Shown here one piece after another: positions 40,007-57,908 of a stretch of DNA of 64,000 nucleotides. Position 1 is the first letter of the stretch, and each line of letters opens with the position of its first letter. Both the position numbers and the translations under genes were made by a program. The notes under the pieces were generated by a model that was given only the letters and a program-made list of their open reading frames with translations, did no database searches and had not been told where the DNA came from. This DNA is from Acidimicrobiia bacterium (GTDB taxonomy: Bacteria > Actinomycetota > Acidimicrobiia > Spongiisociales > ZC4RG35), in NCBI GenBank assembly GCA_040510135.1, contig JBEVJN010000077.1, positions 249 through 64,248 of the forward strand, read 5' to 3'.

Positions 40007-40954
40007 ATGGATCAGCCCTCGGTCGACGTGATCGTGCCGGCCAAGGACGCCGGGGACACGATCCGGCCCGCGCTCGAAGCGATCAACGACCAGACCTATC
40101 GCCTGCTCGGATCAGTCGTGGTCGCGGCCTCAGATCCCGGGACCGCCGCCGTCGCCCGAGAATGTGGAGCCGAAGTGGTGGACAACCCGACCGGCCGCAC
40201 CCCCACCGGCCTCAACCTGGCTCTGGCCCAGACCACCGCCGAGGTCATCGCCCGAGTGGATGCCCACGCTGTCATCCCGCCCGGCTATCTGGCCCGGGCG
40301 GTGCAAGTGCTCACAGATACCGGGGCCGACACTGTCGGCGGCATGCAGGTCCCGGTGGGGAACACGGCATCGGAGAAGGCTGTAGCCGCCGCAATGTCGT
40401 CCCGACTCGGCGCCGGCGACGCCCGCTATCGCATCGGCGGCAAGGCAGGGCCGGCCGACACCGTCTATCTGGGCGTGTTCCTCAGATCGACGTTGGAACG
40501 CCTCGGTGGCTACGACGAGCATTTCGACCGCAACCAGGACTACGAGCTGAATCAGCGAATCAGGGACTCGGGCGGCACGGTCTGGTTCGACCCCGAGCTA
40601 GAGGTCTCCTACCGGCCCCGGGGATCGGTCAGCGCCCTGGCGCGCCAATACTTCGACTACGGGCGATGGAAGCGGGAATTCGCCCGTCATCACCCCGGCT
40701 CACTGCGGCCACGTCAGTTGGCGCCCCCACTCCTCGTCACCGGACTAGTCGTGGCCATCCTTGCTGGCTTGTGGTGGCCGTGGGCCTGGCTCGCAGTTGC
40801 GGCCTATGTCATCGTTCTCGTTCTGTTCGGGCTAAGCCGGCTCCCGGGCACCGGCCCCGGCGCCCTCCTCATACCTCTGGCCCTGGCAGTGATGCATTTG
40901 AGTTGGGGTTTCGGGTTCCTCCTTGGCCGGACAGGGCCAAGTAGAACTCGGTGA
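40007..40954 (+). CDS. GT2 glycosyltransferase with C-terminal TM helices
   Basis: VDVIVPAKDAGDTI...(DxD)...two C-terminal TM helices. The start was chosen at Met17 (MDQPSVD) to avoid overlapping the upstream gene. Confidence 0.75.
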   Translation: MDQPSVDVIVPAKDAGDTIRPALEAINDQTYRLLGSVVVAASDPGTAAVARECGAEVVDNPTGRTPTGLNLALAQTTAEVIARVDAHAVIPPGYLARAVQVLTDTGADTVGGMQVPVGNTASEKAVAAAMSSRLGAGDARYRIGGKAGPADTVYLGVFLRSTLERLGGYDEHFDRNQDYELNQRIRDSGGTVWFDPELEVSYRPRGSVSALARQYFDYGRWKREFARHHPGSLRPRQLAPPLLVTGLVVAILAGLWWPWAWLAVAAYVIVLVLFGLSRLPGTGPGALLIPLALAVMHLSWGFGFLLGRTGPSRTR

Positions 40955-41978
40955 CCTCCCTGTGGGGCCAGCGATACCGATCCCGCACCATCGCTACGTC
41001 GACACCAGCCCTCGCCCGCAGATCTCCCTCGAGAGCCTCGTTGATCCCTTCAGCCATCGCCAGAGAGTTCTCCGGTTCCACCAAGATGACGGCAAGCTTT
41101 TCTGCTCCCGCCTGCCGGATCCCGGGAAGATCGGAGGCGACAACCGGGACCCCGAGTGACAGGTACTCGAAGAGCTTGGTTGGGATCGAGTCGCGGTAGT
41201 TCGGCAAGTTCTTCCAAGGCACGATCGCCACGGCGGCTCCCGCGGCGATCCTCATCGCCTCCGGGTTGGGCCGCGGGCCCACGAAGAGGACCTCAGCACT
41301 CTTTGCCCTGGCCAGATTCGACAACTCCGATCGAGCATCGAAGCTCACTGGCCCGACCAGGCGCAATGGCATCCCGACCAAGGCGCAGGCCTCGATCGCG
41401 GTGTCGAGACCGCGAACCATCGTCACATCTCCGACATGGATCACTTCCCGTCGTGACTCTGGCTCGGGGTCCGGATAGCCAGAGGTATCCGGGTAGTTGG
41501 GGAAGACCACATGCTCGTGTGCGAAGAGATGGGAGTACCCCGCCTCGGCCAGCGTGATGACCAGGAATCGCTCCGCCAGCCCAAGCACCCACTTGCTGAG
41601 CACAGCCAGCGGGCGCCGCAGCGGACCGGGCACCCAGGGACGGGTGAGAGCGGTGGCCGGGATGTCCTCGTGTACATCGAACACCACGGGGCGCCGCTTC
41701 AGTGTCCGCGCCAGCAGCCCGATCGGGATGGTCTCGGGATCGTGGAGGACGAGCACGTCCCAATCTCGGCGCATGACAAGGCCCAGGGCGCGAAACCAAC
41801 GGAAGGCGCGACCACCTCGAAGTGGAAACCATCGCAGGCCGGTGATGTCGGAGGGCCCCGGCTCTTTCGTCGCGTATACGACTTCGAAGTCCACGGCCAG
41901 AGTTCGGACCAATCGCTCTCGTATCCGGGTGTCGTCTGGCCGATGCACCGTGGACAACACCAGGACGCCTGACCTCAT
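40869..41978 (-). CDS. GT4-family (GT-B) glycosyltransferase
   Basis: LVLSTVHRPDDTRI N-terminal GT-B start and a C-terminal Glycos_transf_1 region (VGPRPNPE...KLFEYLSLGVPVVASDLPG). Confidence 0.75.
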   Translation of the reverse strand: MRSGVLVLSTVHRPDDTRIRERLVRTLAVDFEVVYATKEPGPSDITGLRWFPLRGGRAFRWFRALGLVMRRDWDVLVLHDPETIPIGLLARTLKRRPVVFDVHEDIPATALTRPWVPGPLRRPLAVLSKWVLGLAERFLVITLAEAGYSHLFAHEHVVFPNYPDTSGYPDPEPESRREVIHVGDVTMVRGLDTAIEACALVGMPLRLVGPVSFDARSELSNLARAKSAEVLFVGPRPNPEAMRIAAGAAVAIVPWKNLPNYRDSIPTKLFEYLSLGVPVVASDLPGIRQAGAEKLAVILVEPENSLAMAEGINEALEGDLRARAGVDVAMVRDRYRWPHREVTEFYLALSGQGGTRNPNSNASLPGPEV

Positions 41979-43312
41979 AGCGGCTCGACGTTCTCCGCGG
42001 TGATCCCGAGACGGCGATACACACCTCGCGCGTCGTACACAGCAGGCACCTGGTCGGCGAGGTGTTTGTAGTCGACGTCCGAGTGGTCGGTGAGAACGGC
42101 AGCCAGCTCGAATCGAGATAGATCGTCATCGGGACCGACTGACTCGTAACCAAGTGCCTCGATGCGCCGGGCACCGACCACGGGATCGAGAGCGGCAACT
42201 CGAGCACCTCGCTCCTTGAGGACATCGAGAACCTGAAGGGATGCCGACTCACGATCGTCGGCGATATCCGGCTTGTAGGCGAGGCCGACACCAAGTATCG
42301 GCGTTCCCCTGACGGGAAGCCCGCGACGATTGAGGATCTCCGCTATCCGATCGGCACTGTAGGCCGGCATCTTCGAGTTGACCTGTTCGGCGATATCGAT
42401 GAACCGCGTGGTGAAGTTGGTCTCACGAGCTCGCCAGGCCAGATACTGGGGGTCGAGTGGGATGCAATGCCCTCCCACTCCCGGGCCTGGGTAGAAGGGC
42501 TGGAACCCAAACGGCTTCGTGGCTGCGGCATCGACTACCTCCCACACATCGATGTCCAGTTCATGACACAGCTGGGCAATCTCGTTGATCAACCCGATGT
42601 TCACGGCCCGATAGGTGTTCTCGAGCAGTTTGCTCATCTCGGCCGCCCGCGCCGAGCTGACCCGGTGTACCGAAGGGACCAAACGCCGGTAGGCGGCCTC
42701 GGCTACCTCCCCGGACACGTCAGTGACTCCTCCCACCACCTTGGGGATGTCGGCTGTCTTCATCAGGTCGCCCGGCGATACCCGCTCGGGGGAGAAAGCA
42801 ACCCACACATCCTCGTCGAGAGTGAGTCCCGCAGCAGACACTGCCGGGACCAGATAGTCCTCGGTCGTACCCGGGTAGGTGGTCGACTCCAGACAGATCA
42901 ATTGCCCGGGCCGGACTACCCGGGACACCGTCTCTGCCGCTGCCTCGATGTAGGAGAGGTCGGGCTGACGATTGCGGCCGAGTGGGCTGGGCACGCAGAT
43001 GAAAATGGCGTCGGCCTCGGCGAGGATGTTCTGATCCGAGGAGAACCTGACACCTTCCGCCAGAGCCGTTGCGAGTGTCTCATCGGATACATCGTCGACA
43101 TGTGAACGACCCGCGGCCAGGGCTGCGACCAGCTCACCAGAGACATCGAACCCGATCGAGGGAAGACCACGATTCGCCGCGGTTACGAGCAGCGGCAAAC
43201 CCACATAACCCAGCCCGACGACCCCTGCGGTCCATGGCCGGTTGGTGAAGAAGTCGATCCTGTTTGTCACCGCCGCGATGGTAGGAGGATCAGGAATCCC
43301 ACTCCGCGGCAC
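41975..43312 (-). CDS. UDP-N-acetyl-D-mannosamine/glucosamine 6-dehydrogenase (WecC/WbpA/Cap5O family)
   Basis: GVVGLGYVGLPL Rossmann loop. The catalytic GGHCIPLDPQYL is of the UDP-ManNAc/GlcNAc dehydrogenase type, unlike the GGSCFPKD of Ugd. Confidence 0.85.
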   Translation of the reverse strand: MPRSGIPDPPTIAAVTNRIDFFTNRPWTAGVVGLGYVGLPLLVTAANRGLPSIGFDVSGELVAALAAGRSHVDDVSDETLATALAEGVRFSSDQNILAEADAIFICVPSPLGRNRQPDLSYIEAAAETVSRVVRPGQLICLESTTYPGTTEDYLVPAVSAAGLTLDEDVWVAFSPERVSPGDLMKTADIPKVVGGVTDVSGEVAEAAYRRLVPSVHRVSSARAAEMSKLLENTYRAVNIGLINEIAQLCHELDIDVWEVVDAAATKPFGFQPFYPGPGVGGHCIPLDPQYLAWRARETNFTTRFIDIAEQVNSKMPAYSADRIAEILNRRGLPVRGTPILGVGLAYKPDIADDRESASLQVLDVLKERGARVAALDPVVGARRIEALGYESVGPDDDLSRFELAAVLTDHSDVDYKHLADQVPAVYDARGVYRRLGITAENVEPL

Positions 43313-45119
43313 GCTTGAGGAATGCCGCCATCTGCCCCCGGGTCACATGGTCGCCGGGGCAGAACCTGTCGTTGGTCGGTGGATTGCAGCCGAGGGTTAT
43401 ACCGACCGAGGCGATCTTGTTGATCGCCGGCTGGAACTCTGAGCCGGAGTCGTCGACAAAATGGTCCATCGGGGCGTTGGGTAGGCCGTACGCCCGCGCC
43501 AGGAAGGCCGCCATCTGCCCGCGGGGGATGGGCTGACCACCACAGAACTCATTCGCCCGACACCCGAATGTGATGCCGGACTCGTAGAGACGGTTGGCCG
43601 CGTCTTCGTAGAACTCCCCATCATCATCCGAGAAATGGTCGGCGGTCGGAGCGGCAAGGTTCAGCGCTCTGGAGATGAACACCGCCATTTGACCTCTGGT
43701 CACTTCGTTGTCAGGGCAGAATTTGCTGTTCAGAGGTGGGTTGCAGCCCAGAGTGATCTTCTGCTGCGCCAGCCAGATGATGGCCGCCTCGAACGTGTTG
43801 TTGGCGATGTCGAGGAAAGGCCCCTGGTAGTCGATGCCGCTCACGTAAGGAGACACTCGGACCTCAGCCCCGTCCCGGCGGAAGGCGTTGTCGATCAGGA
43901 AGATCCTCAGCTTCTCCCCCCACAGATTCGCCGTCGGGGTGGAGTCGCCGTTCTTGCCGGTGAACTCGATCACGGCGCCGGGTGGACCGGCGATCTGCCT
44001 GACGTTGGTCACTCTCTCCCACCCGAAGTGGGCGGCGATCCTCGGGGCCGGGACAACCACTGTCCACCTCGCCAGCGGGTTGATCTCTGGATCCGCCGAC
44101 CACTTGTCATCGACCGACCTCAGCCAGGGAAGGGCTGTCCCGCCCCAGACAAACTCAACGTCCTCGCTGGCGCCGCCATTGGAGGAGGAGTAGAAGGCAC
44201 GGGCGATGCGAAGCGCATAGTTGGACTGCGGGTGAATCAGAACGCTCCGGTCGGTGGCCTGGACGGCAGCCACCCATTGGGCGCCGAAGTTGCCCGCGGC
44301 CGGGCTCTCCTTGCCCCATCCGACGTATGCCTGATCGGCGGTGGTGTCTCTCAGGTGACATCCACAGCCCGGGTCTTTTCCAGAGCCATCATTTCCGCCC
44401 CGCAAGACGGCGGTGGCGACCGCATAGCTGCGACCGATGATCGCTTGGGCTTTGAGAGCCTCTGCCGGCCAGGAGGAAGGGACCTCGGCCAGTCCAAATA
44501 GGTAGGCCTCCAGCCCGACCATGGCCACGACGTGGAATCCATTCGCCGAGTCGACGAAGCGGATCTGCCCTCGCGCGTACTGGGTGCCATTGATCGACAC
44601 CCTGCTGGACGGGCTGAGGCCGGTGATGCGGCCGTTGCAAGGCTTGTAACCGGTGTGGCCCCCTCCTTCGCCCTTCTTACGGAATCGACACTGGTTGGGG
44701 TTCGCATCGTCAGCCTCGAACACCCACGACTCGCCCGGGTTGATGGTGGTGTCGGCAAAGGCCGTAGTCGGTGGACACTGCCCCGCCGGCTGACAGAGGG
44801 ACAGGGACCCCCCGACCGCAGTCAGATTGACCGCCGTCGTGTTCTCGATCAGACCTACCCAAAGCGCGTTGGGCTGCCTGGTCCAGTGGCTGCTCGGCAT
44901 CGATTCGACCGACGTGCCGGTGTAGTAGTGCTGAAGGATCTGAGTGGCATCTCGCCCATCCTGGGCTTGACCCAGGGCGCCGAACTGCGACAGCCCGACT
45001 CCGTGGCCCCAACCACCGCCGTCGAATTCCCACTCTTCATCGGCAGCGAGGGCTGGCACCGCCAAGCCCAGGAGCGTCAGGGACGCGACAAAAATAGCGA
45101 TCGTCCTTCGGAGCCTCAC
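43290..45119 (-). CDS. Secreted SpoIID/LytB-domain protein with three C-terminal SLH-like (Cys-variant) repeats
   Basis: Signal peptide, a SpoIID-like region (AQAIIGRSYAV...AFYSSSNGG), then 3x ~55-aa repeats of the shared SLH-like module (for example DHFSDDDGEFYEDAANRLYESGITFGCRANEFCGGQPIPRGQMAAFLARAYGL). Confidence 0.8.
   Translation of the reverse strand: MRLRRTIAIFVASLTLLGLAVPALAADEEWEFDGGGWGHGVGLSQFGALGQAQDGRDATQILQHYYTGTSVESMPSSHWTRQPNALWVGLIENTTAVNLTAVGGSLSLCQPAGQCPPTTAFADTTINPGESWVFEADDANPNQCRFRKKGEGGGHTGYKPCNGRITGLSPSSRVSINGTQYARGQIRFVDSANGFHVVAMVGLEAYLFGLAEVPSSWPAEALKAQAIIGRSYAVATAVLRGGNDGSGKDPGCGCHLRDTTADQAYVGWGKESPAAGNFGAQWVAAVQATDRSVLIHPQSNYALRIARAFYSSSNGGASEDVEFVWGGTALPWLRSVDDKWSADPEINPLARWTVVVPAPRIAAHFGWERVTNVRQIAGPPGAVIEFTGKNGDSTPTANLWGEKLRIFLIDNAFRRDGAEVRVSPYVSGIDYQGPFLDIANNTFEAAIIWLAQQKITLGCNPPLNSKFCPDNEVTRGQMAVFISRALNLAAPTADHFSDDDGEFYEDAANRLYESGITFGCRANEFCGGQPIPRGQMAAFLARAYGLPNAPMDHFVDDSGSEFQPAINKIASVGITLGCNPPTNDRFCPGDHVTRGQMAAFLKRAAEWDS
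43293..43832 (-). repeat. Three tandem SLH-like Cys-variant repeats (protein level) at the C-terminus of the SpoIID-like protein
   Basis: Each copy follows the consensus F.DD.G..F...I..L...GIT.GC.PP.N..FCP...VTR.QMA.FL.RAL. Confidence 0.7.
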
Positions 45120-45163: not shown

Positions 45164-46858
45164 TCAACCCCCGGTCAGTCGGTAGACGACACCATCGAGG
45201 TAGTCGACGGCGAGCACTTCTCCACTGTTGTTGATCTCGAACGACACGAAGCCCGAACCACCGAGCCAGGAGGTGAGGTCTCGGGGCTCGACGGCCCGCC
45301 CCTCCAGGTAGCGGAACGCGAGGACCCGGCCACTGCCGAAGTCGGCGTAGACGTAGTACTGATCGAGCGACCGGACTGTCGGACCCCTGTAGACCACTCC
45401 CCCGGTGACAGTCCTTCCCACCGATCTTCCGTACTCGGCCACGGGGAATGTGAGCCCGGTACGAGAGCAGCTGGGATCGGTGTCATTGGGATTGCACACG
45501 GTGCCCTCATAGCGGGACCATCCGAAGTCGTAGCCACGCGGGGTCACCGGCACGGCGTCGATCTCCTCACGTGCGCCCTGCCCGACATCGCCGATGAACA
45601 TCAGGTTGCCGTCGAACGACCAGCGGAACGGGTTGCGAAGTCCCGAGGCCCATATCTCGTCACGACCCGACCTTCCGACATACGGGTTGTCGGCGGGGAT
45701 TCTGTAGGGCTGGGCTCCGTCGACATCGATCCGGATCATCTTGCCAAGAAGGGTGTTCACGTCCCGGGCCCGACCGCCGGGATCGTTTCCGCTTCCACCG
45801 TCACCCAGAGAGAGGTAGAGATAGCCGTCGGGGCCAAATGAAAGGAACCCTCCGTTGTGGTTGCTGAACGGCTGGTCCACGGCCAGCACGGTCCGTGGCG
45901 ACGACGCGGTCTGGAGGTTGGCGGCAATGTCGTATTCGACCAGGTAGGTGGTGTGGTCACCACTCCCGCCGGGCTGCAGGGGGCCCGAGTACCAAGCGAA
46001 AAGGCGCCGATCGGCCGGGTAGTTCGGGTGGAGCTCGATCGAGAGGAGGCCGCGCTCGCCGCTGAAAATGACGTTATCGGAGATGTCGAGGAAAACCCCG
46101 GTCACGGCACCACCCTGGGCGATTCGAATGACCCCACCCTGCTCGGCGATCAGAAGGCGGGTCTCCCCCGGCGGGGCGAGAACCTGGATCGGCGCCTCCA
46201 GCCCGTCGACGACCGTGGCCCAGCCGAGGGCGGGCCGTGCCGGCGGTCGGATCGGAGTGAGGCCAAGGGCTCTGGTCAACATCCCGGCTATCTGAGCCCG
46301 GGTGACGCCGTCGTTGGGGCAGAAGCGGTTGTTGGTCGGGGGGTTACAGCCCAGCGTTATGCCACGATCGGCGATGCGGTTGATGGCCCCTTCGAGCACA
46401 TGACCGTTGTCGTCGATGAAATGATTGGTGCTCGAAGAAGGGATGGAGAGCGCTCGAGCGAGGAATCCTGCCGCCTGGGCCCTAGTGACCGTGTTGTCGG
46501 GGCAAAAGCGGTCGTTCGCCGGGGGGTTGCATCCGAGGGTGATCCCCGCTGCGGCCAGTCGGTTGATGGCACCCTCAAGAACATGGCCATCGTCGTCGAT
46601 GAACGCATCTGTGGGCGTGGCAGGGAGAGTCTGCGCCCTCGCGATCATTGCCGCCATCTGCGCCCTGGTCAGCACCCGCTCCGGGCAATACCGATCGTTG
46701 AAGGGAGGGTTACAACCGAAAGTGATGCCTTCATCGGCTATCGCCTCTATCCCTGGCTCGAGGACGTGCCCGTCGTCGTCGGTGAACGTGCCCCCGGGGG
46801 GCAGACCCACCACCTGGAACATGCTCAGGGCCAAGGCAAAGGCAGCCAGATACGTCAT
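45164..46858 (-). CDS. Secreted PQQ-dependent soluble sugar (aldose) dehydrogenase beta-propeller with three N-terminal SLH-like repeats
   Basis: Three SLH-like repeats follow the signal peptide. The C-terminus has the SGDH/YliI-like propeller (SNHNGGFLSFGPDGYLYLSLGDGG...WASGLRNPFRWSFD). Confidence 0.8.
   Translation of the reverse strand: MTYLAAFALALSMFQVVGLPPGGTFTDDDGHVLEPGIEAIADEGITFGCNPPFNDRYCPERVLTRAQMAAMIARAQTLPATPTDAFIDDDGHVLEGAINRLAAAGITLGCNPPANDRFCPDNTVTRAQAAGFLARALSIPSSSTNHFIDDNGHVLEGAINRIADRGITLGCNPPTNNRFCPNDGVTRAQIAGMLTRALGLTPIRPPARPALGWATVVDGLEAPIQVLAPPGETRLLIAEQGGVIRIAQGGAVTGVFLDISDNVIFSGERGLLSIELHPNYPADRRLFAWYSGPLQPGGSGDHTTYLVEYDIAANLQTASSPRTVLAVDQPFSNHNGGFLSFGPDGYLYLSLGDGGSGNDPGGRARDVNTLLGKMIRIDVDGAQPYRIPADNPYVGRSGRDEIWASGLRNPFRWSFDGNLMFIGDVGQGAREEIDAVPVTPRGYDFGWSRYEGTVCNPNDTDPSCSRTGLTFPVAEYGRSVGRTVTGGVVYRGPTVRSLDQYYVYADFGSGRVLAFRYLEGRAVEPRDLTSWLGGSGFVSFEINNSGEVLAVDYLDGVVYRLTGG
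46258..46801 (-). repeat. Three tandem SLH-like Cys-variant repeats at the N-terminus of the PQQ sugar dehydrogenase
   Basis: GITFGCNPPFNDRYCPERVLTRAQMAAMIARAQ, GITLGCNPPANDRFCPDNTVTRAQAAGFLARAL, GITLGCNPPTNNRFCPNDGVTRAQIAGMLTRAL. Confidence 0.7.
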
Positions 46859-46906: not shown

Positions 46907-48661
46907 GTGATCATGCGTATCTCGATGCGCCCCCTCCTAGCCCTCCTAATGATGGTTGGTATGACCCCGGCAGCCGCCCACGCCACCCCCGCCACTCCAA
47001 CGCCCGCGGAGACCATGCAGGTGGCGATTCCGGCCGAAGTCGGCGCGGATCATCCGCTCGTCCAATCCGAGGCCGTGAAAGGGCAGGCAGCCAAGGGCGA
47101 ACAATGGGTCAGTGTCGAGGTCCCGGTCGAGGGGACCCCGGCTGCGACAGTCCGCTCCCTGTCCCGCGAGCTGGGCGTGCAAGTCTGGGAGGATCAGATA
47201 CTCCAGCTTCAGGCACCCGACGACGAGCCTCTGTTCCCCGAGCAATGGCATCACCACAATGTCGGACAGACCGGAGGGGTGACCGATGCAGATATCGACA
47301 CCCCCATAGCCTGGCCTCGGGCACTCGGTGCCGGAGTGGTCGTGGCCGTCATCGATTCCGGCGTGGACGCCACTCACCCCGATCTCTCCCTGCGGATGCA
47401 TCCCACGGCTTGGGATTTCGTGGACAACGATGCTGATGCCAGCCCCGTCGGCACCGGCGGCAACGAGGCGCATGGAACCCGTGTCGCCGGGGTCATCGCC
47501 GCCTCGCTGAATGGCATCGGGGCGGTCGGTGTCGCCCCCGAGGCGAGAATCATGGCCATTCGAGCGTGCGAAGGTGGAGGCTGCCTGACCAGCGACATTG
47601 CCAACGGCATCCACTTCGCCATCGACAACGGCGCAGATGTCATCAACCTGTCCGTTGGTGCGATCGTGTCCTCGGGTGGCATCGTCGAGAGTGCAGTGGC
47701 CAGAGCCGAGTCGCAGAACGTGACCATCGTCGCGGCCGCGGGCAACCAGGGCGTCGATCTCGGCGACTTGCCAATAGGCCAGATCATGGTGCCCGGCGGG
47801 CTGCCTCAATCCAACGTAGTGGCGGTGGCCGCGACAACGAGTCGGGATCAACTCGCCGGATTCAGCAACTACGGCCGGGACATCGTCGATATCGCCGCAC
47901 CCGGCTCGGAGATCGTCACGACGGATCCCGGTGGGGGTTACGTCCTCGGCGACGGGACATCGTTTTCGGCACCGGTGGTGGCAGGTGTGGCCGCTCTCCT
48001 CCTCAGCCAGGATCCGGGGATTGGCCACCAAGAGTTGATCGCCCGAATCAAGGCGTTCGCCGATCGTCCTGGGAATCTGGCTTCGACGGTGGAAACCGGG
48101 CGGGTCAATGCCGGGAGCACATTGACGCGCCGATTCGTCGACACGGCCGGATCGGTTTTTGTTAAGGCGATCGACCATCTGGCCGCGATCAACGTGACGC
48201 AGGGATGTGACCCACCCCAAAACATCCGCTACTGCCCGGACAGCCTCGTTACACGGGGCCAGATGGCGGTGTTTCTCACCCGGGCCTTCGATCTTCCCCA
48301 GACCTCGACCGACTTCTTCGACGACGACGACGGGGCCTTCTACGAGGAGGCCGCCAATCGAATGGCGGCGGCCGGCCTCAGCACGGGGTGCGCTCCTGAC
48401 CGATACTGCGGGACACAACCGATGCCCAGAGGGCAGATGGCCGCCATGCTATATCGCGGTCTGGACCTGGCGCCAGGCCCCGATGTCTTCGTCGACGACG
48501 AAGCCTCAGCCTTCGAGGGGGCGATCAATCGAGTCGCCGCAGCCGGTATCAGCTTCGGTTGCAACCCGCCACAGAACAATCACTTCTGTCCCGGAGATCC
48601 AGTCACCCGAGGCCAAATGGCCGGGTTCATCCGGCGATCCCTCGACCTGATCAACTCCTGA
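46907..48661 (+). CDS. Secreted S8 subtilisin-like serine peptidase with three C-terminal SLH-like repeats
   Basis: Signal peptide, catalytic triad motifs VAVIDSGVD (Asp), HGTRVAGVIAA (His) and GTSFSAPVVAGVAALL (Ser), then 3 SLH-like repeats. Confidence 0.85.
   Translation: MIMRISMRPLLALLMMVGMTPAAAHATPATPTPAETMQVAIPAEVGADHPLVQSEAVKGQAAKGEQWVSVEVPVEGTPAATVRSLSRELGVQVWEDQILQLQAPDDEPLFPEQWHHHNVGQTGGVTDADIDTPIAWPRALGAGVVVAVIDSGVDATHPDLSLRMHPTAWDFVDNDADASPVGTGGNEAHGTRVAGVIAASLNGIGAVGVAPEARIMAIRACEGGGCLTSDIANGIHFAIDNGADVINLSVGAIVSSGGIVESAVARAESQNVTIVAAAGNQGVDLGDLPIGQIMVPGGLPQSNVVAVAATTSRDQLAGFSNYGRDIVDIAAPGSEIVTTDPGGGYVLGDGTSFSAPVVAGVAALLLSQDPGIGHQELIARIKAFADRPGNLASTVETGRVNAGSTLTRRFVDTAGSVFVKAIDHLAAINVTQGCDPPQNIRYCPDSLVTRGQMAVFLTRAFDLPQTSTDFFDDDDGAFYEEAANRMAAAGLSTGCAPDRYCGTQPMPRGQMAAMLYRGLDLAPGPDVFVDDEASAFEGAINRVAAAGISFGCNPPQNNHFCPGDPVTRGQMAGFIRRSLDLINS
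48119..48658 (+). repeat. Three tandem SLH-like Cys-variant repeats at the C-terminus of the S8 peptidase
   Basis: INVTQGCDPPQNIRYCPDSLVTRGQMAVFLTRAF, GLSTGCAPDRYCGTQPMPRGQMAAMLYRGL, GISFGCNPPQNNHFCPGDPVTRGQMAGFIRRSL. Confidence 0.7.
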
Positions 48662-48684
48662 GGAGCCGATACGATCATTGAGCG

Positions 48685-50439
48685 ATGCATGTCTGCCTCG
48701 TCGCTCGAAATCGGTTCCACAACGACCGCCATGCCCTTTCACTGCACCGCGCTCTGAGCGCGGCAGGACACAGGGTGTCCGTGGTAGCAGTCGAGAATCG
48801 ACCGGCCGCCGGGTTGGTCGACACAACCGTTCCCAACAACGTGCCGGTCGGCCTCGGTCCGATCGGGTCGGCTCTACGCAGGGCTCGCCCGAAGTCTCGG
48901 CGAGAGGCCGGAATCATCCGTCGGCTGTCGGACGCGGCTGCGGCGACCGGTGCCACAACTTTCGTGCCAACCCACTCCAGCGCCGTCGCCGCGGCTGTGG
49001 CCGCCGCCCGGGTCAACCAGGGCACAGTGCTCCGGCAACCTCAAATGGAGTGCCCGCCCGACGTCGATTTGATCGCGATCGCCCCGACCCGGCCCGACCT
49101 GGCGGCTCCGGTGTTGGGGTTCGGCTCGTTCCAGACACCGGACGATCGTCGCGCGCCGTATTCCCCGGTTCCCGACCGTCACCAAGGTCGAAGAGTGATC
49201 ATCTGTTACCGGAAGACCGACTCCAATCCGGGCAAGTACCTCGAGTCGGCTCTCCGGAGAAGCGGGGCTGACGTCCAGCTGGAAAAGGTGGGCATCGACC
49301 TGGACAGCGTCGATGCCGGAACTGACCTGATCGTCTTCGTGGAAGGCCCATACCCGGCGCTCGAAGTGACGGGCGCGACCGAAGTTCCCACCCTCTTCTG
49401 GGCGCACCACGGGGAGCACCACCTCCACACCAATCTGCGGCTGGCCAACCGATACCGGGCGGACGGAGTCCTCCTCGCCCACTCCTGGCACCTGGCTCCG
49501 TGGTTCCCTGCCCCCATTTATCGCTTTCCGTTCGGTGTGGCGACCGAGGTGCTCGATCCCAGTCTTCGATTGAAGGACCGACCCTTCGATGTGGCCTTGG
49601 TCGGAGCCAAACTCTGGGAGGGTGGCCCCTATGGCAGGCGACAGGAGATCGTGCGGGACCTGGAGGCGTCGTTCCCGGCGCATCGACTCGCCTTCGGCGA
49701 GAAGGTCACCGCCGACGTGATGGCCGACATGTATGCCAGGGCTCGGATCGTCGTGAACGAGGGCGGCACCAGGCACTTCCCCATCACGATGCGAGTCCTC
49801 GAGGCTGTAGGCAGCGGGGCGGTGCTCCTCTCTGATCATCTCCCCGGCATGGAGATGATGTTGGAGCCAGAGGCCGAATACGCCGTGCTGAGCCCGGACG
49901 TCGTCAAAGACGTCAGGGAGCTCCTCTCCGACCCGGGGGCAATGCAGGACATGGCCGACCGGGCTTTGACCCGGTCGCTGGGTATCAACACTTATGACCA
50001 TCGGGTAGACGAGCTGTTCCAGATCGCAGCGGAGGTCGAGAAGCGGGATATCCCGGCTATCCCCGAACTGGAGCCAATGGCGGAGCTGATCCGGCGCGAC
50101 GCCGAGGTCCAGAAAGTGGTCGAGTTCGGGGCGCCCGAGCTGGTTGGGGCGCTACCCGATCGTGAGATCTGGGGAGCCACCGAGATCAGCCGGCACCGCC
50201 TGCGCCCTCGCAATCTCGAGGCGGCGGCGGTTCGTCAGGGTGGAGACCCGGACCTCATGGAAAAAGTGCTGGCGAGCGCCAGGCGATACATCTACGTCGA
50301 CGGGCCCTTCGACGGGCTGGACGAATTCGTCGAAGCCCAGCATCCGAACGCCGTCGTGTCTCAGCATGGCAGCGCTCGCCGGTACGACCTGATGGCGGAG
50401 GCATATCGCATCATGCCCCATGAGGTCGTCACCGAGTGA
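48685..50439 (+). CDS. CgeB-like glycosyltransferase (DUF3880 + GT1-like C-terminal domain) with an N-terminal extension
   Basis: The C-terminal half (RIVVNEGGTRHFPITMRVLEAVGSGAVLLSD...) resembles the spore-maturation CgeB GT family. The assignment is tentative. Confidence 0.45.
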   Translation: MHVCLVARNRFHNDRHALSLHRALSAAGHRVSVVAVENRPAAGLVDTTVPNNVPVGLGPIGSALRRARPKSRREAGIIRRLSDAAAATGATTFVPTHSSAVAAAVAAARVNQGTVLRQPQMECPPDVDLIAIAPTRPDLAAPVLGFGSFQTPDDRRAPYSPVPDRHQGRRVIICYRKTDSNPGKYLESALRRSGADVQLEKVGIDLDSVDAGTDLIVFVEGPYPALEVTGATEVPTLFWAHHGEHHLHTNLRLANRYRADGVLLAHSWHLAPWFPAPIYRFPFGVATEVLDPSLRLKDRPFDVALVGAKLWEGGPYGRRQEIVRDLEASFPAHRLAFGEKVTADVMADMYARARIVVNEGGTRHFPITMRVLEAVGSGAVLLSDHLPGMEMMLEPEAEYAVLSPDVVKDVRELLSDPGAMQDMADRALTRSLGINTYDHRVDELFQIAAEVEKRDIPAIPELEPMAELIRRDAEVQKVVEFGAPELVGALPDREIWGATEISRHRLRPRNLEAAAVRQGGDPDLMEKVLASARRYIYVDGPFDGLDEFVEAQHPNAVVSQHGSARRYDLMAEAYRIMPHEVVTE

Positions 50440-52934
50440 CAGAGGGAGTGCAACCGCACAACGTCAACGAGGTTGCTCCCGATCCGACCGGGGCATCCGA
50501 CCTTCGAGTGGCCGTAGTCATCCCCGCCTACAACCGACCGGCGCTCCTTGCTCGGACTCTCACCTCACTGGCGGACCAGACCGACACGTCGGTGTTCGAA
50601 GTTCATGTCGGCGACGACGGGTCAAAGGAGGATATTCGTGGCGTCGTCGAGTCCGTCGAGGGGCTGGACGCCCATTACCACTTTCAATCGCACGACGGTT
50701 TCGGGGCGGGCCGGGCCCGCAATATGGGCGCAGCTCACGCCAACGCCGACGTGCTCCTCTTGCTCGACTCAGACTGCATCGTCCCCCCTGATTTCGTCGA
50801 ACGGCACCGGGCTTGGCACGGGTCGTCCTCGCTGTCGGTGGTGATCGGGGGCCGATCCAACCCCCCCGACCAGACCTCAGGGGAGGCGGAGCACTACCGG
50901 AGCAGATTGCTCCGCAGGTCGGCCGGTCTCCAACACGGCGGCGAGGCGTTTCGGGCGTTCGTCTCCTCGAACGTCTCCATCCGCCTGCCCTTCTTCCGTG
51001 AGCTGGGGGGATTCGATGAGCGTTTTCGCTGGTGGGGAAGCGAGGACACAGAATTGGGCTGGCGGGCCTGGCAGGCCGGCGCCTCTTTCGTGTTCGACCC
51101 AACGCTCGAGATCGAGCACCAACTGGATCAGGACTCGGCCGGTGGACCCGCGGGCAGAAAAGAAGCGCGGAGACTCAACTCCGGACTGATGACGAGTCTC
51201 GTGCCGCACCATTTCTATCGGAAGCAGCCTCCGCCCACGATCCCGGAGAACCCAAAGCTCTCAATTGTCCTGTACGACGTCCCGATCGGTGCCCTGGAAC
51301 CCACTTGGAAATTGTTGGTCGCCCAGCCGCGGACAGACTTCGAGCTGGTCGTGGTCGCCAATCCCGACGATCACGATCCTTTCGCAGGAGCAACCATCGG
51401 CGACCAGCGCATCCGGTTCAGCACCTCGGTCGAAGAAGCGACGTCGTCGTCCGCCAGTGAATACATCTGCTACTTGAACGGCCATGGAGCACCCTCCGAT
51501 GCGCTGTTTCCGGAGATGATCAAGCGGCTCGACCAGCGCCCGGAGTACGTGTCAGCGACGACCGGGTACGCGCTGCCGGCCGATCAGGGTGGGGCCGTGC
51601 GGACCCAGAACGGGGCGGCCACGGTCGACATGGGATGGCAGTCGGACATGCCGCTCTGTTGGTTCATACGGAAACGAGAGACCGCGAAGCTGATGCGGCA
51701 AGGCGCAGGAATCGCGGAGATCTGGCGAACCGCCAAAGAATGGGACCTGAATCGGCATTGGCCATCAGCAGCAGTTCGGCTACCCGGGCTCGAAAGAGCA
51801 GAGCGCCCGGCTGACTTCACCAACGTCTCACCCGACCCGCGTCGGCTGGCCAAGGACCTGGTCAAGAATCCCCGTGACGCGGTGGCCACAACCGCGAGAT
51901 TCGTCGCCGCCAGACGAAACGGGACTACATACGCACCGGTGCCCCAGGCCGCCCGATCCACCACCGTAAGCCCCGAACGCCCTCAGGCCCGCTACGTCGG
52001 ATGGACAGGTAGGTTCAACCTCGGTGACGACATCATGGTCGACTGTGTGCGGGAGCTTCTCGACTGGGCGGACATAGTCGAGTCTGGTGACCCACAGGAT
52101 CTGATCATCCTCGGCGGCGGAACGTTGATCAACCGGCGCACCTACCTGCGCTGGGTATCCGAGCGTGACTCACCCCGCATCGAGCGGGCGACACTGGGGA
52201 CGGGAGTTGCCAGCCCTGACTTCTGGGGTCTGACCGAGGACCCCAAACGGTGGGTTCGCTGGTTGTCGAGTTGCGCCTACGTCGGTGTCCGCGGCCCCCA
52301 ATCCGCGGAAACACTGAGGTCGTGGGGCTACAGGGGCGAGATTGAGGTCTGTGGTGACTCGGCGCTTCTCGTCACCCCGGGCCCCGAGGTCGAACGGAAA
52401 GCCGGTCGAGTGGTCGTCGCTCCGGCTTGGACCAAAGGCGAGCTCTGGGGTGGCTCCGACAGCGATGTAATCGAAGCCCTGGCCGGTGCGATCGAGCGAT
52501 GGAAGCACGACGGCAGAGAGGTGGTGTGCCTTGCCTCCAGCCCCGAGGACGATGGCCAGATTCTCCAGCTGAGCAGGGCGACCGGGGGTGAAGTGCTTCC
52601 ATACCTAGCCGGATATGTGGACAATCAGGCAGCGATCGACCTGATCGGCTCCGCCGAGGTTGTCGTCGGCGAGCGGCTCCACGCTTGCATCCTGGCGGCC
52701 GCGGTGTCGACGCCATTCATCGGCATCGAGTACCGCCCCAAACTGAAGGATTTCGCCGAGTCGGTGGATCGCGGAGATCTCGTGGTCCGCACCGACACCC
52801 TGTCCGGTGAGTCGATCGTCGAACTCGCGGCCGAAGCGACGAGCCGCGGCACGGAAGCGGCCGACTTGCGCGTTGCCGTCTATCGCGATCGCCTGCGGCA
52901 GGCATCGGCCTCCCTGCAGAAGGCCTTGCGCTGA
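50436..52934 (+). CDS. Tri-domain fusion: GT2 + GT2 + polysaccharide pyruvyl transferase (CsaB/WcaK/EpsO family, PF04230-like)
   Basis: Domain 1 VAVVIPAYNRPALLARTL...DSDC (GT2). Domain 2 LSIVLYDVPIGALEPTWK... (second GT-A). The C-terminal ~330 aa reads YVGWTGRFNLGDDIMV...ILGGGTLIN...YVGVRGPQSAETL...CGDSALLV...VVGERLHACILAAAVSTPFIGIEYRPK. This is the G..G.FN.GD / ILGGG / VRG..S pyruvyltransferase pattern. Confidence 0.65.
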   Translation: MTEGVQPHNVNEVAPDPTGASDLRVAVVIPAYNRPALLARTLTSLADQTDTSVFEVHVGDDGSKEDIRGVVESVEGLDAHYHFQSHDGFGAGRARNMGAAHANADVLLLLDSDCIVPPDFVERHRAWHGSSSLSVVIGGRSNPPDQTSGEAEHYRSRLLRRSAGLQHGGEAFRAFVSSNVSIRLPFFRELGGFDERFRWWGSEDTELGWRAWQAGASFVFDPTLEIEHQLDQDSAGGPAGRKEARRLNSGLMTSLVPHHFYRKQPPPTIPENPKLSIVLYDVPIGALEPTWKLLVAQPRTDFELVVVANPDDHDPFAGATIGDQRIRFSTSVEEATSSSASEYICYLNGHGAPSDALFPEMIKRLDQRPEYVSATTGYALPADQGGAVRTQNGAATVDMGWQSDMPLCWFIRKRETAKLMRQGAGIAEIWRTAKEWDLNRHWPSAAVRLPGLERAERPADFTNVSPDPRRLAKDLVKNPRDAVATTARFVAARRNGTTYAPVPQAARSTTVSPERPQARYVGWTGRFNLGDDIMVDCVRELLDWADIVESGDPQDLIILGGGTLINRRTYLRWVSERDSPRIERATLGTGVASPDFWGLTEDPKRWVRWLSSCAYVGVRGPQSAETLRSWGYRGEIEVCGDSALLVTPGPEVERKAGRVVVAPAWTKGELWGGSDSDVIEALAGAIERWKHDGREVVCLASSPEDDGQILQLSRATGGEVLPYLAGYVDNQAAIDLIGSAEVVVGERLHACILAAAVSTPFIGIEYRPKLKDFAESVDRGDLVVRTDTLSGESIVELAAEATSRGTEAADLRVAVYRDRLRQASASLQKALR

Positions 52935-52948
52935 CCGGGCCGGCGCCT

Positions 52949-54358
52949 CTGCGCATTCTCCTCGTCACCAGCAATGGTTGGGGGCTGGGGCATCTGACCC
53001 GCCAGCTCGCAATCGCCCTCGCCATTGGCGATCGGGCGGAGACGACCATGTTCTCCCTCTCCCCCGGATTTCCCCTCGCCATGGACTTTGGGGTCAGGGG
53101 TGAGTACTGCCCGAGCTTCACGACACAGTTCATCGTGCGAAAGGAATGGGACAACTATCTCCAGGACCGGCTGGCGGCTTTCGCCGATGAAGTGCGGCCC
53201 GACGTGATGTTGTTCGACGGTGTCGCGCCATATTCCGGGTTCATGCGGGCCATCGCTCAGCTACCCGACTGCGTCGTGGGCTGGCTGCGTCGTGGCATGT
53301 GGCGCGAGGGATCCAACGAGCATCAGCTTCAGAAAACAGCCGGGTTCGACTTCGTGATCGAGCCCACCGATCTAGCGTCGGACGTCGACACGGGCGCCAC
53401 CATCGGCGCCGAGGCGCTGCGGGTGCCGCCAATCAGCCTGCTAGAGGTGATGGACCAACTCGATCGGGAGACCGCGGCGCGTGAGCTCGGCATCGACCCG
53501 CATCGCCCGACACTTCTGTTGACTCTGGGCTCGGGCCGGCTAGGTGATGTAGCCGGGCCTGGCTCTACCGCCCTCGATGTGGCCCTGGGTGACACGGACT
53601 GGCAGGTGGCTGTGACCAATTCCCCGGTCGCGGTGAATTTGGTCCCCTTGGTCGAGGATTCACGGGTGATCGAGATCAAAGGGGTGTACCCGCTGCTCCG
53701 CTACTTCAAAGCGTTCGATGCCACGGTGAGTGCCGCCGGATACAACTCGGTGCATGAGCTGGTCCCGGCAGGGGTTCCCACCCTGCTCATCCCCAATACC
53801 TCGAGCAAGACCGACAACCAAGAGGGACGCGCTCAATACCTGGCCGACCTCGGTGTCGCCCTGTCTGCCCGTGACGACGATCTGAGGGCGGTCGCGAGAG
53901 AAACCGCGCGCCTCCTCGACCCGGCGGTTCGGGCCGAGCTGATCGATAACCACCAGACGAGCGGAGTCGCCGACCGCGTCGGCGGCGCCAAAGCAGTCGC
54001 TTCCGAGCTCTTGAAGCCTCCGCAACCCTCGGGACGGGAGCGGGCGCAGACCCATTGGGACGCGCCGCTATCGAGTCGAATCGCCGGAGCGCTTCTCGGT
54101 GAGAAAGGGAAAGCCACGGTCAAGCGGCTGCTTGGCCGCACCGTTCCCGACTACACGACCGAACGACGCCGGGTCCGCCTCGGTGATAAGGAAGCCACAC
54201 CGGAGCGCGGGATCCTGCGCCTGTTGGTCACTAGCGAGCGTGACCGGATCGATCCACGTGCCGCCTATCCGATCGAGCATGTACTGAAGGGGTCAACACC
54301 GGGCTACCGACAACGCCGCATGGAGATAGTCGAGAAGTATTACGAGGTGCTCGAATAG
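52949..54358 (+). CDS. MurG-like/GT28-type GT-B UDP-glycosyltransferase. Its conserved N-terminus lies upstream of the first ATG (53048), so the likely start is CTG at 52949.
   Basis: In frame upstream of the ATG at 53048 the sequence encodes RILLVTSNGWGLGHLTRQLAIALAIGDRAETT. This is the canonical GT-B N-terminal glycine loop. The C-terminal AGYNSVHELVPAGVPTLLIPN is of MurG/Glyco_tran_28_C type. There is no ATG/GTG/TTG in frame between the upstream stop (52808-52810) and 53048. Confidence 0.55.
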   Translation: MRILLVTSNGWGLGHLTRQLAIALAIGDRAETTMFSLSPGFPLAMDFGVRGEYCPSFTTQFIVRKEWDNYLQDRLAAFADEVRPDVMLFDGVAPYSGFMRAIAQLPDCVVGWLRRGMWREGSNEHQLQKTAGFDFVIEPTDLASDVDTGATIGAEALRVPPISLLEVMDQLDRETAARELGIDPHRPTLLLTLGSGRLGDVAGPGSTALDVALGDTDWQVAVTNSPVAVNLVPLVEDSRVIEIKGVYPLLRYFKAFDATVSAAGYNSVHELVPAGVPTLLIPNTSSKTDNQEGRAQYLADLGVALSARDDDLRAVARETARLLDPAVRAELIDNHQTSGVADRVGGAKAVASELLKPPQPSGRERAQTHWDAPLSSRIAGALLGEKGKATVKRLLGRTVPDYTTERRRVRLGDKEATPERGILRLLVTSERDRIDPRAAYPIEHVLKGSTPGYRQRRMEIVEKYYEVLE

Positions 54359-54362
54359 TGGA

Positions 54363-55457
54363 CTACGGCATGGCCCGGACAAAGAAGGTGGCCATCTGTG
54401 ACCGCTTCAGCGGCATGTCCGGACAGAAGTTGGTATTGGCGGGTGGATTGCACCCCATTGTGACGCCATGGGCGGCGAGGGCATTGATCGAGTCTTCGAA
54501 CCGGTTGCCCTCATCGTCGACGAAGTAGTTAGTGGCTGTCGGGTTGTCGTAGCCGAAAGCCCGAACCAGCAACTCCGCCATCTCGTGGCGAAGGAGCGAA
54601 ACACTGGGACAGAACTCGGTCTTCGTGCAACCGAACCCGATTCCAGCCGCCTCGATCGCACGGATCGCCGGCTCGAACTTGTTGCCGGCGACGTCGGTAT
54701 ACGGGATATCCCCGCCCTCGGGCAAATCGAGAGCGCGAGCGATGAATGCTGCCATCTGCCCGCGCGTAATCTGATCTTCGGGGCAGAACATGTTGTTGAG
54801 CGGCGGGTTGCATCCGAGTGTGATCCCGCGTTGCGCGATGATCTCGATGTTTTTCTCGTGGACGTTGCCGTCGTCATCGCGGAAACGCCCATCCCAGCCA
54901 CCAGCCGCGTTGACCAGGTACGGGTAGGCATCGATCGCTGTCCCGTTCTTGCGCAATTCGAAATGCAGGTGTGGGACCGTCTCCGCCGCATTCCCGGAGT
55001 CACCGGCCCAGCCGATGACCTGACCACGCTTGACCGCGACGCCTTCGACGAGGCCCGCGGCAATCCCCCATCCCTCGCCGTCGGTGTTGTCGATGTAGTT
55101 CCCGGCGGCGTCCTTCTTGTCGTCATTCAGATGGATGTAGCGCGTGACCCATCCGCCGCCATGGTCGATACCCACATAGCAACAGTCCGAAGGCCCCGAG
55201 CTGATCCAGCTGATGGTGCCGTCGGCTACGGCGAGGACTGGCACACCTTTGGCCGTCATGATGTCGACGCCCTCGTGGGTCCTGGAGCACCCAGATCCTC
55301 GGCAATCGCCGAAACTGTCGGTCAGCCGATACTCCCCGTCGAGGGGGAAGGTCATGGCACTTGGATCAAAGGGTGCTGCAAGAGCGGGCGCGGTCGTAGG
55401 CAGCAAAGACCCGAAGGCCAACACGAGCCCCGCTAACAAACGCGTCGAAAACTTCAC
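54363..55457 (-). CDS. Secreted M23-family peptidoglycan endopeptidase with three C-terminal SLH-like repeats (GTG start)
   Basis: Signal peptide, M23 motifs (HEGVDI...HLHFE), then 3 SLH-like repeats (GITLGCNPPLNNMFCPEDQITRGQMAAFIARAL...). Confidence 0.85.
   Translation of the reverse strand: MKFSTRLLAGLVLAFGSLLPTTAPALAAPFDPSAMTFPLDGEYRLTDSFGDCRGSGCSRTHEGVDIMTAKGVPVLAVADGTISWISSGPSDCCYVGIDHGGGWVTRYIHLNDDKKDAAGNYIDNTDGEGWGIAAGLVEGVAVKRGQVIGWAGDSGNAAETVPHLHFELRKNGTAIDAYPYLVNAAGGWDGRFRDDDGNVHEKNIEIIAQRGITLGCNPPLNNMFCPEDQITRGQMAAFIARALDLPEGGDIPYTDVAGNKFEPAIRAIEAAGIGFGCTKTEFCPSVSLLRHEMAELLVRAFGYDNPTATNYFVDDEGNRFEDSINALAAHGVTMGCNPPANTNFCPDMPLKRSQMATFFVRAMP
54366..54905 (-). repeat. Three tandem SLH-like Cys-variant repeats at the C-terminus of the M23 peptidase
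   Basis: Same consensus as in the other four proteins. Confidence 0.7.
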
Positions 55458-57894: not shown

Positions 57895-57908
57895 GTCGGC
57901 GGGATCCT

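Follow-up and report, generated by a model that had tools for sequence, protein, structure and literature searches.

Which reactions are carried out by a protein in which glycosyltransferase-type domains are joined to a pyruvyltransferase, and for which envelope polymer, is the question raised by an 832-aa protein encoded in the 64-kb stretch of Acidimicrobiia DNA analyzed here (hereafter the window). Ketal-pyruvyltransferases are hard to study, since their acceptor substrates are mostly not known or not obtainable, and a natural fusion to the glycosyltransferase (GT) that probably makes the acceptor would offer a self-contained system giving donor, acceptor and product via one recombinant protein. 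The gene and its parts are as follows.

50436..52934, + strand: whole gene with a GTG start, encoding the 832-aa fusion of a GT2 domain, a degenerate GT-A domain and a pyruvyltransferase
50505..51221, + strand: domain 1 (aa 24–262), predicted intact GT2 (GT-A) domain with a C-terminal part of the beta4GalT type
51237..51815, + strand: domain 2 (aa 268–460), GT-A/GT2 fold without catalytic motifs, a putative pseudo-glycosyltransferase
51816..51977, + strand: linker (aa 461–514), partly disordered
51978..52931, + strand: domain 3 (aa 515–832), polysaccharide pyruvyltransferase by its Pfam match to PF04230

The full-length AF2 model has a pLDDT of 88.5 and a pTM of 0.79, and the linker comprises two basic helices (aa 468–494, pLDDT ~65) followed by a disordered segment (aa 496–512, pLDDT <50), being poorly conserved at 20% identity. 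No transmembrane segment is predicted in the protein, the highest 19-aa Kyte-Doolittle window being 1.38, and a reading of the protein as a membrane protein was dropped because a hydrophobic segment is absent. By tblastn, none of the three domains has a paralogue elsewhere in the window, and no second pyruvyltransferase was found there.

The C-terminal domain, which the earlier note had taken for a pyruvyltransferase, indeed belongs to this family, with PF04230 matching aa 528–766 at 81.8 bits against a gathering score of 25.3, and the domain 3 profile matches Pvg1p (5ax7) at E 2.9e-6. Conservation of motifs was assessed in 50 homologues of 33–89% identity, among which the elements G560-G-G-T563, R619-G-P, E746-R-L-H749 and E765-Y-R-P-K769 are invariant, as are 40 of the 318 columns of the domain as a whole. 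Phosphoenolpyruvate (PEP) is bound in CsaB by R148, R306, H308 and K328, which correspond to R217, R337, H339 and K361 of Pvg1p (PMC10435577). Their predicted equivalents in domain 3, R619, R747, H749 and K769, are kept in all 50 homologues; the RLH motif aligns with Pvg1p, and R619 and K769 were assigned by motif and spacing (20 residues from H to K, as in CsaB) rather than by direct alignment with CsaB. Domain 3 differs from CsaB in that the NCBIfam equivalog model TIGR03609 reaches 85.9 bits where 213.1 is required and aligns only with aa 607–778, which leaves the presumed acceptor-binding N-terminal part uncovered, so the acceptor need not be ManNAc. The WcaK equivalog models gave marginal matches to the 832-aa protein (E ~0.01), and membership of the CsaB, WcaK and EpsD equivalogs was rejected, all three scoring below their cut-offs.

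Domain 1 bears the full GT2 catalytic signature, that is D60-D61-G-S, a D111-x-D113 metal site and an E203-D204 base. It matches PF00535 at 99.3 bits (gathering score 23.3, aa 27–161), with PF13641 and PF10111 also above their cut-offs, and its top NCBIfam match is the exopolysaccharide (EPS) glycosyltransferase EpsD, below cut-off. D60, D61, S63, D111, D113, E203 and D204 are invariant in 50/50 homologues and G62 in 49/50, with 31 of 239 columns invariant overall.

Two GT-A domains preceding the pyruvyltransferase had been proposed in the earlier note, together with the addition of two sugars that are then pyruvylated. The two folds stand, as domain 2 displays a GT-A fold and detectable GT2 ancestry, and its DFEL and GEY motifs align with SpsA; the second sugar transfer does not. 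Domain 2 escapes detection by Pfam GT2 models altogether, the nucleotide-binding DD is not kept (D19/N7/P/S and others at the position after beta-2), the DxD equivalent is N348-G349-H350 and varies among homologues (N22/D16/H8/G3/S1, then G, then H27/R7/W5 and others), and conservation is absent from the stretch corresponding to ED. Only 5 of its 193 columns are invariant, far below either flanking domain, and it evolves faster (35% identity versus 51–52% for domains 1 and 3); those residues that are invariant sit in the generic GT2 structural motifs DFEL, DPRI, GEY and RRRE. Some GT-A enzymes function without a DxD. In domain 2, DD, DxD and ED are all lost and so few columns are invariant that the domain is most likely non-catalytic, and only the first GT2 domain, as judged from its motifs, retains those for catalysis. 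An enzyme in which both GT-A domains are active, adding two successive sugars as the chondroitin polymerase K4CP does before the disaccharide is pyruvylated, is thus unlikely in view of the same evidence. The protein is best understood as an enzyme that transfers a single sugar and adds pyruvate, in which the pseudo-glycosyltransferase would serve as a scaffold or an acceptor-binding module.

The genetic surroundings were compared in 30 GTDB species loci, each flanked on either side by 8 kb or more of sequence, which reach down to ~36% identity. Neighboring genes with conserved positions are listed here.

48685..50439, + strand: CgeB-like protein of 584 aa (PF13524, Glyco_trans_1_2), directly upstream, the conserved partner
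53048..54358, + strand: 436-aa GT-B-like protein with a weak Glyco_tran_28_C/MurG-like C-terminal domain, downstream; in 16/30 loci
41975..43312, − strand: nucleotide-sugar dehydrogenase, with UDP-ManNAc dehydrogenase as top equivalog matches, below cut-off; syntenic in 19/30 loci
40869..41978, − strand: GT4 glycosyltransferase; syntenic in 22/30 loci

The coupling to the CgeB-like gene suggested earlier is confirmed, given that its stop overlaps the GTG start of the fusion gene by 4 nt (GTGA), that it lies directly upstream in 25 of the 30 loci, and that a 1521-aa protein (P0143) unites CgeB-like, GT2, middle and pyruvyltransferase parts in one chain. Farther out, the region contains genes for a phosphoglycosyltransferase that initiates synthesis, of the Bac_transf type (EPS-type, polyprenyl), for several glycosyltransferases, an LCP ligase, a class A PBP and dTDP-rhamnose enzymes, and methyltransferase and sulfotransferase genes are present in the cluster. 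Homologues of TagA (GT26), TagO and MnaA were not found among the window ORFs scanned, all of which lie beyond 17 kb.

The genes encoding SLH-domain proteins around the fusion gene, overlooked in the earlier note, constitute the main contextual clue.

43290..45119, − strand: SpoIID-domain protein with C-terminal SLH repeats, two of them with a TRGQ motif
45164..46858, − strand: glucose/sorbosone-dehydrogenase-like protein with three N-terminal SLH repeats (TRAQ)
46907..48661, + strand: subtilase (S8) with C-terminal SLH repeats
54363..55457, − strand: M23 peptidase with C-terminal SLH repeats

These four triple-SLH genes and one SLH-like ORF flank the fusion gene within ~7 kb, none occurring elsewhere in the window, and every SLH repeat of the 64 kb falls inside 43278–55987. 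In most repeats, the GIxxG glycine and the TR(A/G)Q arginine are kept; in SpaA, these residues make contact with pyruvate (PMC6081394). An SLH gene is present within 10 kb in 29/30 related loci, and three or more in 28/30; at the divergent loci L069 and L083, an SLH gene is absent within that distance.

Since the gene sits among genes for SLH proteins, its product probably makes a pyruvylated wall sugar that those proteins hold. We consider it reasonably likely that the fusion is a soluble or peripheral cytoplasmic enzyme in which domain 1 transfers one sugar, domain 3 pyruvylates and domain 2 assists as a pseudo-glycosyltransferase, the product being the ligand of the neighboring SLH proteins. 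The setting would be a cell-wall glycopolymer pathway of the Acidimicrobiia bacterium. Domain 1, as an inverting GT2, would use a nucleotide sugar to add one hexose or HexNAc in beta linkage to a polyprenyl-diphosphate-linked oligosaccharide, and domain 3, as a ketal-pyruvyltransferase, would then transfer a pyruvyl group from PEP to that sugar or to its neighbor, still at the lipid-linked stage. Domain 2 would no longer bind a metal-nucleotide sugar and may act as a rigid scaffold and/or as a module by which the pyruvyltransferase binds its acceptor or carrier, the whole protein presumably acting in concert with the CgeB-like protein, to which it is translationally coupled. Once exported and attached to peptidoglycan, the pyruvylated polymer may be bound by the triple-SLH proteins (SpoIID, dehydrogenase-like, subtilase and M23) encoded beside the gene.

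Alternatively, the substrate of the fusion could be a capsule or an exopolysaccharide that is secreted, as for EpsO, WcaK and GumL, the SLH genes being incidental envelope neighbors. Such a role would accord with EpsD as the best, though sub-threshold, match of domain 1, with the EPS-type initiating enzyme, with the methyltransferase and sulfotransferase genes, which are typical of decorated EPS, and with the fact that most PF04230 enzymes studied to date act on EPS, CPS or O-antigens (PMC6801904). Nevertheless, the tight and specific clustering of SLH genes around the fusion gene, its recurrence at 28–29 of the 30 species loci, the retention of the pyruvate-contacting Arg and Gly, and the LCP ligase and class A PBP in the same region all argue against it, and we regard this role as improbable.

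The same domain order, which the earlier note had proposed to look for elsewhere, is found at full length in more than 110 independent protein clusters from different samples (34–89% identity) and at 67 GTDB species-level genome loci, nearly all of them Acidimicrobiia MAGs; complete Acidimicrobiia chromosomes, OZ244213.1 and OY970200.1, also carry the gene. An assembly chimera or a frameshift joining separate glycosyltransferase and pyruvyltransferase genes, a doubt raised in that note, can be dismissed as virtually impossible because of this recurrence, with which the confident full-length model agrees. The fusion of GT2, pseudo-glycosyltransferase and pyruvyltransferase is a real, conserved enzyme of uncultured Acidimicrobiia. 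Its description as unusual holds relative to characterized enzymes only: a literature search found no described glycosyltransferase-pyruvyltransferase fusion or bifunctional enzyme of this kind, but among the best 144 representatives (50% identity) of a pyruvyltransferase-profile search, 34 are fused forms of the GT2/middle/pyruvyltransferase family, and GT2-pyruvyltransferase and sulfotransferase-pyruvyltransferase proteins also occur among them. Pyruvyltransferase fusions with GT2, sulfotransferase or CgeB-like proteins thus recur in metagenomes, so the present one is an uncharacterized variant within kinds already known rather than a category of its own. Close relatives of ~350 aa consisting of the pyruvyltransferase domain were not accepted as stand-alone enzymes; at least one of them, P0128, falls into the same 90% cluster as a 765-aa member and is probably a truncated gene call.

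Proteins composed of the middle and pyruvyltransferase domains without the active GT2 also exist, and the role of domain 2 therefore appears to be tied to the pyruvyltransferase. A more speculative extension, which we put forward as a possibility with the odds against it, is that the pseudo-glycosyltransferase and the pyruvyltransferase form the conserved evolutionary unit, the dead GT-A domain having been reused for recognition of the acceptor or lipid carrier, with fusion to the active GT2 and to the CgeB-like protein being optional additions; the unit might then provide Acidimicrobiia with a route to a pyruvylated SLH ligand that is independent of TagA and CsaB and possibly built on a sugar other than ManNAc. 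The retained pseudo-GT-A domain would be a testable example of how an enzyme domain that has lost its activity can be taken over as the partner of a modifying enzyme. Acidimicrobiia are an actinobacterial class that is widespread but mostly uncultured, and the fusion gives a candidate for their SLH-anchoring pathway; it also suggests that this pathway uses other parts than that of Firmicutes, with a GT2 enzyme instead of the GT26 enzyme TagA. Polysaccharide pathways often contain fused domains, and every part of this protein comes from a known family; hence, known biology is extended here and no new category is opened.

Among known systems, the E. coli K4 chondroitin polymerase K4CP (KfoC, PDB 2z86) also has two GT-A domains, both of them active and each with a DxD. 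The fusion differs from it in the missing motifs of its second GT-A domain, so that apparently only one is catalytically competent, and in the appended pyruvyltransferase, and nothing in the analysis points to a K4CP-like polymerase activity. CHPF is the pseudo-glycosyltransferase partner in a GT-A complex, the human chondroitin polymerase CHSY3-CHPF (9q8z), and domain 2 may be likened to it by analogy only. Stand-alone PF04230 enzymes, such as S. pombe Pvg1p (5ax7), Klebsiella WbbZ (6x1l), WcaK, EpsO and GumL, are single-domain proteins of ~300–430 aa, unlike the present C-terminal domain of an 832-aa chain. A functional parallel is the TagA and CsaB pair of Paenibacillus alvei and Bacillus anthracis, which serves the pyruvylation of the SCWP to which SLH proteins are anchored. 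CsaB is a ManNAc 4,6-pyruvyltransferase whose acceptor is the beta-D-ManNAc in the lipid-linked ManNAc-GlcNAc that TagO and TagA produce. In P. alvei, tagO, tagA and csaB are transcribed together as a single unit, and the lipid-linked product of TagA is the substrate that CsaB pyruvylates (PMC6030368). By analogy, the fusion would likewise couple an inverting glycosyltransferase step to PEP-dependent ketal-pyruvylation at a lipid-linked stage, with the PEP-binding Arg/His/Lys set present in domain 3; the co-transcribed genes of the pair adjoin those for SLH proteins, and the fusion gene, like csaB, is associated with such genes across genomes. In contrast to the pair, both predicted activities reside on one polypeptide, the glycosyltransferase is a GT2 enzyme of GT-A fold and not of GT26, a pseudo-GT-A domain is interposed between glycosyltransferase and pyruvyltransferase, and the hosts are actinobacterial Acidimicrobiia rather than Firmicutes. 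The fusion may accordingly be viewed as a covalent analogue of TagA and CsaB.

The target gene (50436-52934, + strand) is an ORF of 832 codons with a GTG start and a coding-type composition (GC1/2/3 = 0.67/0.50/0.76, in a window of 64% G+C), and all the peptides quoted in the earlier note are present in its translation. The 4-nt overlap with the upstream CgeB-like gene (48685-50439), also reported there, is the shared sequence GTGA, in which the stop of that gene meets the target start; GAGG lies approximately 11 nt upstream of this start. Pfam places PF00535 (Glycos_transf_2) at aa 27-161 (99.3 bits), with PF13641 and Glyco_transf_7C carrying the GT2 region on to approximately aa 232, and PF04230 (PS_pyruv_trans) at aa 528-766 (81.8 bits, E 1e-22), and the protein is a member of both PF00535 and PF04230. 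No Pfam match was obtained for aa 262-500, the region of domain 2; a profile of this region, built from 27 sequences, matches the GT2 structures SpsA (E 1.6e-8), 3bcv (1.4e-5) and 6p61 (7e-4). NCBIfam returned only sub-threshold matches (EpsD, 137 bits vs 370), and the protein falls outside the CsaB equivalog (85.9 bits vs 213, at aa 607-778 only). The predicted full-length model is confident (pLDDT 88.5, pTM 0.79), and the only disordered stretches in it are aa 1-3 at the very N-terminus, aa 145-151 in a loop and aa 496-512 in the linker. The protein looks soluble or peripheral, with no transmembrane segment. Given these Pfam, profile and model results, the description as GT2 - GT2 - pyruvyltransferase is correct at the level of the fold.

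Motif conservation was scored in an alignment of 50 homologues. Domain 1 keeps D60-D61-G-S, D111-x-D113 and E203-D204 invariant, and domain 3 keeps GGGT (560-563), R619-G-P, E-R-L-H (746-749) and E-Y-R-P-K (765-769), the RLH of which aligns with that of Schizosaccharomyces pombe Pvg1p. R619, R747, H749 and K769 correspond to CsaB R148, R306, H308 and K328, with R619 and K769 assigned by motif and spacing rather than by direct alignment to CsaB; these CsaB residues are important for PEP binding, as judged by mutagenesis of R148, H308 and K328 and by docking for R306 (PMC10435577). Domain 2 retains generic GT2 structural motifs (PK-S, DFEL, DPRI, GEY, RRRE), and SpsA matches several of them in the profile alignment. 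Its residue after beta-2 is unconserved (D19/N7/P/S and others), its DxD-equivalent reads N22/D16/H8/G3/S1, then G49, then H27/R7/W5 and others (N348-G-H in the target itself), and the expected ED-base region is variable. Mean pairwise identity is 51% in domain 1, 35% in domain 2, 20% in the linker and 52% in domain 3, and invariant columns number 31/239, 5/193 and 40/318 in the three domains, respectively. Domain 2 is thus most likely a pseudo-glycosyltransferase, although a metal-independent activity would still be compatible with its sequence. Therefore, the proposal that the protein adds two sugars is unlikely to hold, with the functional positions of domain 2 unconserved and only 5 of its 193 columns invariant.

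The same domain order, which the earlier note had suggested searching for in other genomes, is found widely. More than 110 clusters with the full-length architecture (34-89% identity) were recovered from approximately 5.8 billion proteins; where a source is named, they come from Acidimicrobiia MAGs and one Acidobacteria MAG, and are annotated just as 'glycosyltransferase'. A scan of GTDB species representatives gave 193 stretches encoding relatives. Of the 80 loci kept, 67 combine an N-terminal GT2 with the pyruvyltransferase domain, two of these 67 being on complete chromosomes. All these GTDB loci are from MAGs, with no cultured organism among them. The architecture is already abundant, though unannotated, in public MAG data, and a chimeric artefact is ruled out by these clusters and loci. 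Several MAGs with close homologues (up to 94% identity; L007, L008, L013-L015, L018 and others, MFD bins) carry record titles such as 'uncultured Acidobacteriota' or 'Chitinophagaceae'; these titles are probably mislabelled, since the gene content and closest named relatives are those of Acidimicrobiia.

A domain 3 profile searched against 1.84 billion representative proteins gave 11,119 relatives at E <= 1e-3, of which 600 reached E <= 1e-30. Domain HMMs assigned the best 144 to the following architecture classes, in which some short entries are truncated gene calls (P0128 clusters with a 765-aa member).

Architecture classes among the best 144 domain 3 relatives
GT2 + domain 2 + pyruvyltransferase: 20 representatives
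Domain 2 + pyruvyltransferase: 13 representatives
GT2 + pyruvyltransferase: 1 representative
Pyruvyltransferase only: 110 representatives

Domain 2 appears to be tied to the pyruvyltransferase. An intact 540-aa gene of this pairing, without a catalytic GT2, is present on the 55.9-kb contig of locus L083 (9335-10957, +); its middle domain matches the domain 2 profile with an hhalign probability of 95%, and the gene has a 4-nt overlap with the stop of a CgeB-like gene. P0117 (627 aa) keeps GT2 and domain 2, while its pyruvyltransferase half is decayed and truncated, without GGGT or RLH. The domain 3 profile also retrieved GT2-pyruvyltransferase fusions (P0263, P0261) and sulfotransferase-pyruvyltransferase fusions of approximately 700-730 aa (P0169, P0209, P0215, P0249). 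P0143 (1521 aa, from Logan assemblies; 90% cluster of two members, two contigs each) joins a CgeB-like part to GT2, domain 2 and pyruvyltransferase; over the N-terminal part it shares 33% identity with the upstream CgeB-like protein of the window (E 2e-78). This fusion supports a functional link between the CgeB-like gene and the target. Because several fusion types were found, with GT2, domain 2, sulfotransferase and CgeB-like partners, pyruvyltransferase fusions are recurrent in environmental sequence data; our literature search found no description of one.

Genes with SLH repeats surround the target, and SLH repeats were found nowhere else in the 64-kb window.

SLH genes around the target
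43290-45119: SpoIID with three tandem SLH repeats
45164-46858: glucose/sorbosone-dehydrogenase-like protein with three tandem SLH repeats
46907-48661: subtilase with three tandem SLH repeats
54363-55457: M23 peptidase with three tandem SLH repeats
55706-56428, +: 240-aa ORF with a TTG start and no Pfam match; SLH-like repeat at 55799-55987 (tblastn E 6e-14)

The last ORF may encode one more SLH-related protein, a small fifth one, or may be the remnant of a gene. Most repeats read G-I-T-x-G ... T-R-(A/G)-Q and retain the SLH glycine and arginine, which in Paenibacillus alvei SpaA directly contact the pyruvate ketal, TRAQ being a natural variant of TRAE (PMC6081394). TR(A/G)Q stands here at the place of the canonical TRAE, and the loop after GIxxG, mostly G-C-N-P-P-x-N-x-x-F-C-P, contains two conserved cysteines (as in aa 21-200 of the 45164-46858 protein); these repeats may represent an actinobacterial SLH subtype stapled by disulfides. 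Neighbouring genes were compared across 30 related species-level loci flanked by 8 kb or more on each side: an SLH gene lies within 10 kb in 29, three or more SLH genes are present in 28, and a CgeB-like gene is directly upstream on the same strand in 25. Recurring genes encode M23 (27), dehydrogenase-like (26), SpoIID (24), GT4 (22) and nucleotide-sugar dehydrogenase (19) proteins.

The target sits within a cell-envelope glycopolymer region.

Glycopolymer genes
17140-18411, -: LCP (LytR-CpsA-Psr) ligase
26248-28830, +: class A PBP with PASTA domains
57079-58053, -: sulfotransferase, 4 kb downstream of the target
61246-63916, -: dTDP-rhamnose genes (RmlD-, RmlA-, RmlB-like)
In the region of the target: Bac_transf initiating phosphoglycosyltransferase
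In the region of the target: several GT2 and GT4 enzymes, methyltransferases, PMT/GT87-like GT-C
In the region of the target: nucleotide-sugar dehydrogenase, closest to UDP-ManNAc dehydrogenases

The rhamnose genes, ligase and PBP fit a peptidoglycan-attached, possibly rhamnose-containing wall polymer, and the sulfotransferase, together with the sulfotransferase fusions elsewhere, is a hint that some polymers bear sulfate as well as pyruvate. Two ORFs of coding-type composition inside this region, at 38551-39993 (+, 480 aa) and 29349-30611 (-, 420 aa), have no Pfam or NCBIfam match and are possible candidates for the missing membrane proteins of polymerase, flippase or ligase type. On its left, the envelope gene region is bounded by ordinary central metabolism: genes for acyl-CoA carboxylase subunits, a pyridine-nucleotide-disulfide oxidoreductase and methylmalonyl-CoA mutase occupy 19932-26248.

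The tagO-tagA-csaB genes of P. alvei belong to a single transcription unit. There TagA, an inverting transferase, attaches beta-ManNAc to GlcNAc-PP-lipid, and CsaB pyruvylates the TagA product at the lipid-linked stage, giving the SLH-domain ligand (PMC6030368). The analysis shows which domains the target has, the state of their motifs, their conservation and the synteny of the gene. On this evidence the target appears to follow the TagA/CsaB logic on a single chain, in which a putative pseudo-GT-A domain and a flexible basic linker stand between an inverting GT2 and the pyruvyltransferase, and the translationally coupled CgeB-like GT-B protein would be its working partner. We infer a lipid-linked acceptor, the reaction order, the role of domain 2, and a product that would serve as the SLH ligand. 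The pyruvyltransferase part N-terminal to aa 607 presumably binds the acceptor and lies outside the CsaB model match; since this part is uncovered and the CsaB equivalog threshold is not reached, ManNAc should not be assumed as the sugar. In practical terms, the target provides a self-contained system in which the acceptor of a pyruvyltransferase can be defined. It also gives Acidimicrobiia a candidate pathway for SLH anchoring and, in domain 2, a putative pseudo-glycosyltransferase partner that is open to testing.

All parts of the target come from known families. Of its closest known counterparts, TagA and CsaB resemble it in proposed function, but are separate proteins of a different phylum, with a glycosyltransferase of another family. 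K4CP shares the tandem GT-A fold, with both of its GT-A domains active, but lacks a pyruvyltransferase, whereas Pvg1p, WbbZ, WcaK and EpsO share PF04230 with domain 3, but are stand-alone single domains.
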